Part shown: positions 994-15,900 of the stretch, piece after piece
How the letters are laid out: each line of letters begins with the position of its first letter
How positions within the stretch are numbered: position 1 is the stretch's first letter
Origin: Macrostomum lignano
Lineage: Eukaryota
DNA length: 64,000 nucleotides
Reading direction: 5' to 3'
Assembly (NCBI GenBank): GCA_002269645.1
Contig: NIVC01000843.1
Location: 280,546-344,545, forward strand
Translations under genes and position numbers: made by a program
The notes under the pieces: generated by a model
Seen by the model: the letters and a program-made list of their open reading frames with translations, nothing else
Database searches by the model: none
What the model was told of the DNA's origin: nothing

Positions 994-1858
994 TTCCGCA
1001 AAGTCGTCACGAAATCTCCACAGAGTTGGGCATCTGCAATGCTGCATCTCCAAGCGCTGATGTCAAAGTCACCTTTGAGTCTCCAGACGCATCCACGCAC
1101 GTGTGCAGAGCATTCGACTCTAAAGGCAAGCAGCTGACAATTACTGCCGTGAAATATCCAACATGCGATGTGGCTGACAATGTGCTGAGATCCCAGTGGC
1201 TGTGCTCAAACTGCAGCAGCTCAGCCAATGTGTCTGTAATCTGTCAGGCTGATCAACATCAAGTTAGAAAGATTGTCAAATCACGCTGTCCCCACGTGTA
1301 TGAGAGTAAGTTGTTTACCATTTATCTACGAAATGGTTATTGAAAGTTCTTTGAATAGTAAAATGAAGCCTTCCATGATCAAACTTTCAGATTTTTGGCT
1401 GTTAGGCGTGTTATTGACCGAGATAATTGTATTAATCATATTGATATCCCTTGCAATCCTGATCTACTACGAGAAGGTAAGCTTGACATGAAATCTTAAT
1501 GTAAATAGTAAGATTGAGAGTCAAAGGTCTGTAATAAGAGGCAGTAGTCTTCATGTTATCTGCAAGGCATCAAACTGAGCAAGATTTTGTTTTAAAAAGA
1601 GCTATATATCGAACTGAATCCCATCCAAAATAAATTTAGAAAAAATTAATTCCGAAAAATTATTTGATAACTTTGATAAACGGCCACACTTAAAAGTTCC
1701 AGAGTTGTGCTCATCCTCCTAACCAACCCAGCGATCCTCCAGCCGAGCTGAGAATGCAGCGAGCTGCTCAAAGCGTCTACGTGGATGACATGGTAGCCAT
1801 GACAACCAATAGGACTGACAACGTTTCGCCGCCTCGGTCAGTTTACGTTAGCGATTGA
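994..1858 (+). CDS. Receptor-like gene A, 3' part (type-I membrane protein): exons 994-1305, 1391-1476 (TM), 1703-1858 (cytoplasmic)
   Basis: AG/GT boundaries with consistent phases. Exon 994-1305 (ELGICNAASPSADVKVTFESPD...SQWLCSNCSSSANVSVIC) is clearly paralogous to exon 21514-21206. Hydrophobic exon FWLLGVLLTEIIVLIILISLAILIYYEK. Exon 1703 reads SCAHPPNQPSDPP...SVYVSD to a TGA; whether it is truly terminal is uncertain. Upstream exons not resolved. Confidence 0.7.
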
Positions 1859-2109
1859 GGAAGCGCTTGATTCTGTATTCGGCAATAACTATAAGTAACT
1901 ATATGGAGCGTAACTATTTGGAGCTAACGTCGCCAGAGAATCATCGTGACCATTTTAAACACGAATATATTCTCGCTCCATCTCAATAACTTGATAACTC
2001 GTAAAAACATATCCAGGATTTCGAAATTATAAATTATAGAATGGTCATCAAATAAAACCAAGAGCTGTGAACTATGGTTGATTATAAATTATTATATTTT
2101 CATATTAAA

Positions 2110-12900: not shown

Positions 12901-15900
12901 CTCTGTCCTAGCATGCGCCTCTCTGTCCACGCCGCGTGCTGCGACATGCCGGGGCTGCGCAGGGTGCCTCCACGCACTCTCTGTCCCAGCACCCCGTGTC
13001 TCTCTGTACCCCGCCTCATACTGCTACAGGGGGCCGCCTGTTATCTGTCCCCCTGCTACAGGGGGATGGCGGCTCTCCACGCACTACCCCTCCTGCTACA
13101 GGGGCTGCTCTCTGTCCCCAGCTACAGGGCTGCTCTCTGTCCCCCGCATGGGGGGTTGGTTGCTCAGTGTACAGGGCTGCGTCAGCATCGGGGTTAAAAC
13201 TTCTCGCTCCCTATACCCCCAAACCGTGTAGTGGCCTAGTATGGGCGCGCCCTGGGTTCGATTTCGCTAGTTGAGATGTGGGTGAGAGAGGGGAAGAGGC
13301 TAGGTGGGGGCAGGGCGTGAGGTATAGGGTGCCTGCGGGGTACGTATCGTTGACTACATATCGGGAGAGTGGCAGAGTGTACATATCGGTAGAGTGTACA
13401 CTCGGGGTGCCTGCGGCTCGGTAGAGTGTACACTCGGGGTGCCTGCGGCTCGGTAGAGTGTACACTCGGGGTGCCTGCGGCATGGGCGCCTGCTGCATGG
13501 GCGCCTGCGGCTCGGGAGGGTGCGCTTGGGATCTGATTGATTTGGGATCTGATTGATTTGGGATCTGATTGATTTATTGGGATCTAATATCGGTAGGTGC
13601 GCCTGCGGCTGGGGAGGGTAACCTGCGGCGCTTGGCGCCTGCGGCGCGCGCGCGCGCCGAGCGCCGATATCGATACGCGTATCGATCACCTAGTGATCGG
13701 GGCGCCAGCCAATGAGAGGCGAGGAGGGTTGACACCCACCTCACCTCCAAAATCGCGCCATTCGGAATCCCTTAGTAGTCATCACTGTATACAGAGAATC
13801 GAAGAAAAATATTTACAACTCAATCCTGTGTCTGATCTTTTTGACTTAGGATATTTAAAAATCTTTTTTTGACTTTGAACCATGGGGAAATTACTAGTTA
13901 ATATGAATTTCAGACACTTTCGCAGACAGTTTAATTGAGCACGAAGATGCTTTCTCAATGGATTTTTTTACTCCGACTGACCTGATAGTTGTCATTAGAC
14001 TTTGGAAGTTCAACCATGCAAATGGCAGAATTTGTATGCAAATTTTCATGCCTCACCGCCACTCCGTTGTTAGGCGCTGGTGGTTCTTCATTTGAAACTT
14101 TCTCAGTTGAGTGTCTGGAAAGCAATTGAAACATTTTTTATGTAGGGTGGAGTAATGCGTAGTAGGTTCCATTCATTGAAAGACTTATACAATGATACAA
14201 TTATGTTTTAGCAATCCAATAAATTTTATTTTCCTGCAGTATTCCAACAGCTTTAGAGCTGATAAATTAACACACATGGACATTGGTTCCGGTACAAGGC
14301 TCCCTGGAGGAGACTTTTCGAACGAATCGTTTTCGAATATTTTCCGTCAATTCGTGGCCGAGTTCTTTGATGTCGCGTAAGTCCTTCCTTCACATTGCTG
14401 ACACACGGAGAAATGCTTTATGTGTGAATTGAACTCAATTTGGAAGTGAAAAGTCAAAGAACAAAATCAAGGCTAAAAATTGTGGTTCAGATCTAAATGG
14501 GAACTCGACTGTGCTTTATGAAGAGGCTTCCCCAAAGGGGATAAATGTGGAAAAAGGCGATTTCCTGCGAACTTCTGGCTCTAAAATGGATGCGGTGGCA
14601 GATTGCGGCTGATTCTTTATCGAATCTCACGACTAGACCGAATGTGTTAATTTTACATCCACAACTTTATTACGTTGATGTGACTTCATGTAAATATTTT
14701 TTCTCGTGATAAATTTATAAAAATTATTCTAATAGCTATTATAAATTTTATGCATACAACGTCGAATAGATTGATTCTAAAAACAGGCATTTTGGCTTGG
14801 ATTAGCTGCCCACATCGAAATAGTTTGATTTACATGCAGGTACCGTCACACTAGAATTATAATTTCATTAGCTATAGCTATATATCTCAATCCATATGCA
14901 TGGCTAACAATTATATTCAATCAGTGCCTGAATAAGACTAAAAGCGGTCGACCGACAAATACACGTAGCACGTAGAAGGATAGGGTACCTCGCTTCTCCC
15001 TTCTTTCTTAGAAACACTCATGATAAATAGCTCAATATCATTAGCTCGGTAGCTAAATCTTATAGCCATCAGTATCTATATGATAGCAAATTCTATTTAG
15101 ATATGAAATCGCAAACGTGTTTAATTTCAGTCTAGTCCGATTAAAAGCTTCCTATTTTACGCAATATAACTTTTTAGCTGCCTGTTGATATTGCCTAATT
15201 AAAGATTCAATTTACACGAGCAATAGACTTTAAGTTGTCTAACTTCGTGAATGAAAACCTAAGTTTTTTATTGGATTCTTTTAATAGCTCTTTTAATAGT
15301 TCTTAAAAAGCTACAAAACCGGTATATAGACAGTTTGACTCACACAAATACAAATACGTTCTGTGTTTCTCAGCAAGGACTACTAGACTAGATGTTCCAG
15401 TGGTCCTTGTTTCTCAGTAGCTAGCTAGAAAATTGTTTCTTGATCAATAATCTTGTTGTTCGTTGAACGACACATAAACAAGTCGTTCTAGCAAATTACT
15501 GTATATATGTAGCATAAATTACTCACCTTACAGTTGCTAGCTTTCGTTCAAGCGTTTGATGGCTTCCAATAGCCTGTTGGAAATATTTTAATATTTTGTT
15601 ATTTATATTAATAATTCTGTACTTTAATTGCTGCGTAGGCGCATGGATTGTACATAAGGAAAGACACAAAAGATCAGAAAAGTTGCATATTAATACCATT
15701 TTTCTACAAGCAAATATCGCTCCTGCGACAACAGCTATTAACAGAATCGAGGAAACTGCCATCAATATGTATATGTAGAACTGAGTAAGTTCAGGTGAGG
15801 ATGGCCTTTGAAGCTCTTTAGTTTCCTTAGCTGAAAAGTATAAATGAATTAATTTTTATGGGTACTGTAATGCCTAGCCAAAATGATAAAATGAATCAAG

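Follow-up and report, generated by a model that had tools for sequence, protein, structure and literature searches.

We analysed a 64,000-nucleotide stretch of the Macrostomum lignano genome (assembly GCA_002269645.1, contig NIVC01000843.1, positions 280,546 to 344,545 of the forward strand; hereafter the window), in which a 4.8-kb element that we class as a Polinton derivative sits next to a gene for an immunoglobulin (Ig)-domain membrane protein, accompanied by an inverted copy of its left host flank and by a duplicate of its own right part. The order in the window is L, A, TIR, X, Y1, TIR, A', CGAAAG, Y2, TIR, CATCAC, B, where A and B are the left and right flanks, X and Y parts of the element, and TIR its terminal inverted repeat (Table 1). 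By both self-BLAST and direct comparison, all 2991 bases of 1643-4633 agree with the reverse complement of 9010-12000, and 7449-9219 is 99.7% identical to 12007-13779. The differences between Y1 and Y2 are three substitutions within 14 bp (7524/12082, 7533/12091 and 7537/12095) and two one-base homopolymer gains, at 12441 and 13150, and the three TIR copies are identical letter for letter. The target-site duplication (TSD) CATCAC pairs the first terminus with the third, a 6-bp match with a chance of about 1/4096, while GTGATG, the inverted left junction, adjoins the second. The assembled sequence and the insertion are confirmed, and an earlier note on this DNA was right in both its coordinates and its TSD pairing.

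Table 1. Coordinates of the features in the window.
Feature	Position	Strand	Remark
Left host flank A	1643..4423	+	2,781 bp, duplicated, TSD at its end
Candidate terminal exon, proline/lysine-rich tail	2092..2270	-	Phase-compatible with 4025-4100; a guess
Candidate next exon of the Ig gene	4025..4100	-	Phase-compatible; inverted copy in A'; a guess
Left TSD CATCAC	4418..4423	+	
Left TIR	4424..4633	+	210 bp, 61% G+C, starts ACTACT
Element interior X	4634..7448	+	One copy within the window; non-coding except the polymerase relic
Protein-primed family-B DNA polymerase relic	4958..5215	-	86 aa, homologue search
Element right part Y1	7449..9009	+	
Right TIR (second terminus)	9010..9219	+	Contains junction 1 somewhere
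A', inverted copy of 1643-4423	9220..12000	-	100% identity; first letters GTGATG
Junction 2 insert CGAAAG	12001..12006	+	Matches neither parent
Y2, direct copy of Y1	12007..13569	+	5 differences from Y1
Third terminus (original right end)	13570..13779	+	TIR with final AGTAGT
Right TSD CATCAC	13780..13785	+	
Last mapped exon of the Ig gene	14057..14114	-	tblastn of P0020; GT donor 271 bp before the TSD

The element (4424-9219) is 4,796 bp long with a spacer of 4,376 nt from TIR to TIR, and its sequence identifies it as a non-autonomous Polinton derivative: it holds a relic of a protein-primed family-B DNA polymerase (pPolB), its TIR of 210 bp at 100% identity lies within the Polinton range of 100-1500, and its 6-bp TSD within the range of 5-8. 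The relic, which bears out the assignment of the earlier note to the Polintons, is 88% identical to the database proteins P0001 and P0002 (E 5.5e-46), and the UniRef proteins matched at this identity are labelled DNA-directed DNA polymerase of Macrostomum lignano. Seven of the nine homologues come from this species and all nine carry PF03175, the family of protein-primed B polymerases from organelles and viruses; we take the PF03175 proteins of animals to belong to Polintons. From its motif, and from the accessible text of bioRxiv 10.1101/2023.08.22.554363, we also assume that the relic contains a VSR-like insert. Apart from the relic, no segment of the nine pPolB proteins aligns within the element, and a PDB sequence search with P0005 gave no match at E 0.1. 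The element is without a long open reading frame (ORF), and Pfam at E 0.01 matched 0 of 57 element ORFs of at least 45 aa (57 of the 59 listed, the two others lying mostly in TIR and flank). The same scan missed the real pPolB relic, so it can miss small relics; this one was spotted by its motif and came up in the homologue search alone. Compared with an autonomous Polinton, the element lacks an intact pPolB gene, the integrase, protease, ATPase and capsid genes, and the length of 13-25 kb.

CACTA/EnSpm transposons end in CACTA...TAGTG and have a TSD of 2-3 bp; this candidate was rejected, since the third terminus ends in TAGT followed by C and the 6-bp TSD sets the boundary. The element ends, 5'-(ACT)2//(AGT)2-3', are not among the three motifs that the accessible text of a vertebrate-only survey gives for Polintons, namely (AGT)2//(ACT)2, (AG)3//(CT)3 and (AC)3A//T(GT)3 (PMC8097293). 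As to an autonomous partner with this TIR, a scan of viral contigs for its initial 16 bases gave seven loci, all matching over only 16-21 nt, which is chance level, and Rfam gave no matches over window positions 1-17000. Inside the element, a 165-bp block with 32-bp tandem units at 6196-6360 repeats 8796-8960 at 98%, and 4715-4736 pairs with 8614-8635; these are traces that an older internal rearrangement left in the right subterminal region.

Two junctions define the rearrangement. Junction 1 lies within the TIR and repeats the old left junction backwards, including the TSD. Junction 2 joins 1643 to 7449 with a 6-nt insert and no flanking microhomology. An exact 11-nt donor, made up of five inserted and six flank bases, is present at 11614-11624 (on the other strand at 2019-2029), 381 bp away, and is equalled within 500 bp by 15 of 2304 random 6-mers, a figure that belongs to one of three radii tried and is uncorrected. 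A snap-back hairpin is likewise compatible with the insert, which was likely templated. At none of the junctions in the window did we find a newly made join between terminus and target, or a second TSD.

Next we examined independent short-read data. Twelve public runs from five studies contain all or part of the stretch, and we compared four of these (X1, X7, X8 and X12) over 9220-16000, as short-read contigs, which drop rare variants. The comparison covers 15 of 115 joints, 24 of 1374 loose ends and 32 of 17543 pieces. Left out were X2, X3, X9, X10 and X11, which contain the stretch, and X4-X6 and X13-X19, which share less than 0.2 of it and count as no evidence. We found that the contigs of X7, X8 and X12 stop exactly at 9220 and that one X7 contig has its first letter exactly at 13780. 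Such ends are expected at the points where filled and empty alleles part, and they support the insertion. One contig of X1 begins at 13786 with 32 extra letters; if these fall on 9220-9251, the predicted first-bin depth is 238.70 and the observed one 238.7. From this depth arithmetic, and not from the joint row itself, we deduce that X1 holds the empty site, the flanks being joined with one CATCAC. Similar contigs in X8 and X12 have 24 and 30 extra letters, too few to serve as bridging.

The same runs inform on the element family. The right part of the element is much deeper than the flanks in all four runs and thousands of contigs matched it at 90-99%; the mini-Polinton family has dispersed copies in the genome. 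One X8 contig reaches a depth of 567.5 against about 17-26 in the flanks; summed depth does not equal copy number. An X1 loose end before 12007 is identical to 7428-7448, which makes the passage from X to Y the normal continuation in the family. In a family comparison that covers 40 of 135 substitution and 12 of 32 indel positions (12091, 12095 and 13150 lie outside it), Y1 and Y2 share five letters unlike most family contigs (12283, 12951, 12956, 13156 and 13157, with their Y1 partners). Because most family contigs lack these letters, Y2 derives from this copy or a closely similar one. In the runs, the Y1 letter prevails at 12082 (exclusively so in X8 and X12) and the Y2 length at 12441.

We favour, with about an even chance, an origin of the rearrangement in two template switches by host replication or repair, the TIRs acting as a passive substrate and the outcome belonging to the class DUP-NML-INV/DUP. 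Under this hypothesis, the 4.8-kb element would first have inserted at CATCAC, a step read from the sequence and supported by the contigs, and host replication or repair synthesis would afterwards have switched template twice in one event. One switch would have gone through the 210 bp of perfect homology between the TIRs and reversed the direction; the other, at 1643/7449, would have used little or no homology and left the probably templated 6-nt insert, in the manner of MMBIR (break-induced replication mediated by microhomology) or of polymerase theta. Such a route would produce the flank twice (one copy inverted), X once and Y twice, and no element enzyme would be required. The window agrees with this class in having A twice, one copy inverted, X once and Y twice, and in having one junction within inverted repeats (the TIR) and one non-homologous junction (CGAAAG). 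A passive role of the TIRs is the most likely one because no new terminus-target junction is present. The G+C-rich TIR, the left copy of which folds well as single-stranded DNA (z -3.44), is a possible site of fork stalling, and closely linked inverted repeats at stalled forks are described to yield inversions in yeast (PMC8748988, in the part available).

This reading keeps part of what the earlier note had proposed. A switch from TIR to TIR together with a second, non-homologous switch stands as the simplest route, and the junction types match those that the accessible text describes for DUP-NML-INV/DUP (PMC6902434). The order given in the note, from right TIR to left TIR first, is possible but is only one of two equally good ones: a rightward fork could take the TIR first, or a leftward fork could make the CGAAAG junction first and then come back through the TIR. 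The two orders are indistinguishable, and several layouts satisfy the same junctions.

A number of observations weigh against two switches in a real allele. Within 30 or 100 bp of junction 2 the best exact donor is 5 nt long and is equalled by 25-85% of random inserts, and two small hairpins across the insert are not significant (z -0.97 and -1.62). Y1 and Y2 differ at 5 of 1561 positions and A and A' at 0 of 2781 (Fisher p 0.006), a contrast not predicted by a uniform single copying pass, to which conversion by other family copies or polishing errors has to be added. Furthermore, the CGAAAG junction is absent from the contig rows compared in the four independent runs. Contigs of X1, X8 and X12 cross 12000 and continue for 268, 429 and 236 letters of different sequence, presumably that of the normal left flank; no X7 piece across 12000 is among those compared. 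Finally, the depth of flank A is 1.16-1.39 times that of flank B by means and 1.08-1.37 times by medians, and this ratio can be obtained from polymorphism alone.

These observations bear on whether the allele exists in the animal, which is unproven. It is possible, though rather doubtful, that the animal has only flank, element and flank, the rest being a library or assembly artefact in the form of a chimeric molecule with two local strand switches, as is typical of amplification, or of a mis-join in an assembly of three subgenomes. The unseen junction 2 and the unbroken contigs over 12000 in three runs speak for such an artefact, as do the identity of A and A' and the lack of a clear depth gain. 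According to the available text of the respective sources, 36% of the length of one M. lignano assembly, perhaps another than ours, lies in subgenome-chimeric scaffolds (PMC10733133), and template switching during amplification is a known source of false structural variants (PMC11226609). An artefact would require two chimeric switches within 8 kb with the original direction restored. A missed-adapter foldback, which the note had named as a refuting explanation, is ruled out by the non-palindromic 4,376-nt spacer within the palindrome. To our knowledge, assemblers do not invent a non-homologous junction with an insert. Moreover, contigs show presence and not absence, and the link at junction 2 could be lost like other links between element and flank: if all four runs carry the element, a contig break is visible at 4 of the 8 expected links (left in 3 of 4 runs, right in 1 of 4), which makes the missing CGAAAG junction weak evidence of absence. 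Most often retained is the left link, of which the rearranged allele has a double dose. If real, the rearranged allele is probably recent and either private to, or rare in, the sequenced material.

The earlier note expected about twofold depth over both duplicated tracts, but this test is mis-specified, as 7449-9219 belongs to a multicopy family and the genome has three subgenomes, about 1.4-2.4% apart according to the accessible text of PMC10733133; with three subgenomes, about 1.25-1.5-fold depth is expected over the duplicated flank. Flank B has two alleles (at 14992-15200, the window allele has 73 against 162 in X1 and 19.3 against 20.2 in X7), which lowers its word depth. The depth therefore neither confirms nor excludes a gain of 1.25-1.5-fold, with a slight lean against it in X7 and X8. 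In X8 and X12, the 9220-9446 bin has additional depth (about 36-44 per 30 letters), which points to a link into a repeat but holds no dose information.

The duplicated flank shows no differences from the contigs compared in the four runs over 9220-9878 and 10683-12000. The right flank (13786-16000), unlike this difference-free tract, has two alleles 1-3% apart, and a tract homogenised among the subgenomes seems to end near the insertion site. A duplication on one subgenome was considered as the cause of the zero differences in A and not adopted, the right-flank allele of the window making up only 31% in X1. A repeat of about 300-370 bp occurs at 2929-3294, 3505-3802 and 20128-20517, two copies thus lying within the duplicated flank, in opposite orientation and at 83% identity. 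It is a very abundant short element, as its extreme depth in all four runs indicates.

The excess of differences between Y1 and Y2 could reflect conversion by other copies, a donor on a second chromatid, or polishing errors in a multicopy repeat. The second of these leads to an unlikely two-step origin. Here the left TIR of one chromatid would have crossed over with the right TIR of the other to give a palindromic chromosome; after a break at 1643, end joining or break-induced replication would have healed this chromosome onto Y of a sister or homologue. The same two junctions would result, another donor chromatid would account for Y1 and Y2 differing while A and A' do not, and end joining, too, typically leaves short inserts (PMC6902434, in its accessible part). 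This origin nevertheless demands more steps and the survival of an unstable intermediate, and its break lies no more than 2.8 kb away from the element; by sequence alone it is indistinguishable from template switching.

We then considered a role for the element itself. The claim of the earlier note that a Polinton is actively remodelling host DNA found no backing, as there is no new terminus-target join, no second TSD and no coded enzyme beyond an 86-aa relic. One such version is improbable: a strand-displacing, protein-primed pPolB, provided in trans, would have copied the element in its integrated state, changed template at the TIR panhandle and run out into host DNA, and the product would have been resolved in place. 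The family is multicopy, long pPolB-type proteins are on record for the species (7 of 9 matches), and the switch maps to the strongly folding TIR, the presumed origin; the data do not, however, fix the switch point at a terminus. Junction 2 is an internal one, at a distance of 1.77 kb from the end; no junction is of integrase type, and this is a single case. Furthermore, priming by a terminal protein runs inward, and in the accepted model of Polinton replication it is an excised copy that is replicated, both of which count against this version.

The presence of three termini in 9.4 kb would suit an integrase-mediated alternative transposition, one-ended or between sister chromatids, in which an end moved along with host DNA, and such events are known to cause duplications and inversions (bioRxiv 10.1101/2024.01.15.575659, available text). 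They should leave a new terminus-target junction and a new TSD, and neither is present; the second terminus is followed, letter for letter, by the old left junction, and no terminus takes part in junction 2. The junction sequence contradicts this mechanism, and its probability is very small. Passive TIRs in two host template switches remain our preferred origin.

At the insertion site, tblastn of the M. lignano database protein P0020 (about 95% identity) places exons of the Ig-domain membrane protein gene at 14-17 kb, running leftward from 16989, and P0020 stops where the 14057 exon does. Shortly downstream of this mapped exon comes the element, probably in an intron. Whether the gene continues into A through the candidate exons of Table 1 is close to an even call: 4025-4100 was picked from 16 candidates in A with a phase-0 acceptor, three of which have the same donor, and 2092-2270 was picked from 22 candidates and has no Pfam match. 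If the gene does extend into A, its pre-mRNA would contain, over the last candidate exons, a perfect duplex of 2,991 bp with a loop of 4.4 kb. The most far-reaching combination, a real allele made by a trans-acting family pPolB as a trapped in-place intermediate of Polinton replication, with a 3-kb intron hairpin over downstream exons of the Ig receptor gene as a natural silencing allele, is very improbable.

Elsewhere in the window, 29128-31530 (minus strand) is an intronless, AT-rich ORF of 800 aa for a primase-helicase (Prim-Pol, PriCT_2 and D5_N) with an in-frame (TGTC)n run near its 3' end. The closest of its 10 homologues are just 25-33% identical and metagenomic, none being labelled with the host species, and it seems to belong to an unrecognised element of virus-like or plasmid-like type. 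A strong hairpin at 32836-32939 (z -9.9), 1.3 kb upstream of this gene, has outer arms (AGT)n...(ACT)n, the canonical Polinton end motifs; no TSD was seen by eye, and the hairpin is possibly an origin, a terminus or the fused ends of the primase element. At 24295-27505 (plus strand) lies a reverse transcriptase (weak RVT_1 match) with a GIY-YIG-like C-terminus by eye, an SGNH/GDSL-like ORF upstream of it and (CT)n tracts at 24491 and 28037, which we take to be a Penelope-like element. In a 281-bp inverted pair (989-1269 and 21236-21516, 91%), both copies have splice-like borders and an open frame rich in cysteine; they are possibly paralogous exons of an older inverted gene duplication. Remnants of a hAT-type transposase (zf-BED and DUF659) occupy 40971-42123, and the C-terminal part of a dynein heavy chain, made up of three long open frames that have few introns or none, 59757-63890 (both minus strand).

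If real, the allele is a compact case, resolved to the base, in which two TIRs of one dead Polinton suffice to seed a class of inverted duplication found in human disorders, here in a flatworm model with an unstable genome, and it adds a duplication to the Polinton-linked rearrangements of C. elegans. The mini-Polinton family with its (ACT)2//(AGT)2 ends is a minor addition. The view of Polintons is unchanged unless the element polymerase proves to be the agent, and the rearrangement may still be an artefact. The rearrangement class is known and inversion and duplication linked to Polinton TIRs have been reported in C. elegans (bioRxiv 10.1101/2024.01.15.575659, as far as its available text goes). 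Our literature search, with subscription journals and Repbase largely outside its coverage, found no report of the single-element layout or of the (ACT)2//(AGT)2 motif.

Compared with Polinton/Maverick elements, the TIR size, the 6-bp TSD, the simple-repeat termini and the pPolB-derived sequence are alike, while the length of 4.8 kb instead of 13-25 kb and the lack of an intact gene are not (bioRxiv 10.1101/2023.08.22.554363 and PMC8097293, available parts); among the vertebrate motifs the termini are nearest in their end bases to (AC)3A//T(GT)3 (PMC8097293). In C. elegans, where TIR and pPolB without integrase are described at 10 loci, the eri-6/7 locus likewise has Polinton remnants and TIRs in a host gene and host exons inverted and duplicated (bioRxiv 10.1101/2024.01.15.575659, same portion). 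There, several insertions and ectopic recombination were proposed, with population and expression support, whereas here we have one element and one inverted duplication, known from sequence. Complex insertions of Drosophila hobo with MMBIR-type duplications resemble our case in their local structural variants beside a TIR element, attributed to error-prone host repair, and in short de novo inserts, but there the repair is ascribed to the insertion itself (PMC11226609, in the text available), while here the outer TSDs are intact and a switch from TIR to TIR is needed.

A further likeness is to human disease alleles, as they appear in the accessible text of the reports. DUP-TRP/INV-DUP rearrangements at MECP2 and PLP1 also use an inverted repeat pair for one of two switches (PMC9851044, PMC6902434); in our case, junction 2 falls between the repeats and not upstream of the inverted segment, and only the TIR is triplicated. 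In the DUP-NML-INV/DUP alleles of the PLP1 region (BAB8920 and BAB8934; PMC6902434), as here, two duplications flank a single-copy segment, and single-nucleotide variants and indels lie near the junctions. One junction there lies between opposite repeats and the other at microhomology or microhomeology; in BAB8920, one switch went through LINEs (long interspersed nuclear elements) of opposite orientation and the other through microhomology, with three layouts that fit. The human events extend over megabases and involve separate LINE or Alu copies that are 89-93% identical, whereas in M. lignano identical TIRs lie 4.4 kb apart in a 12-kb event.

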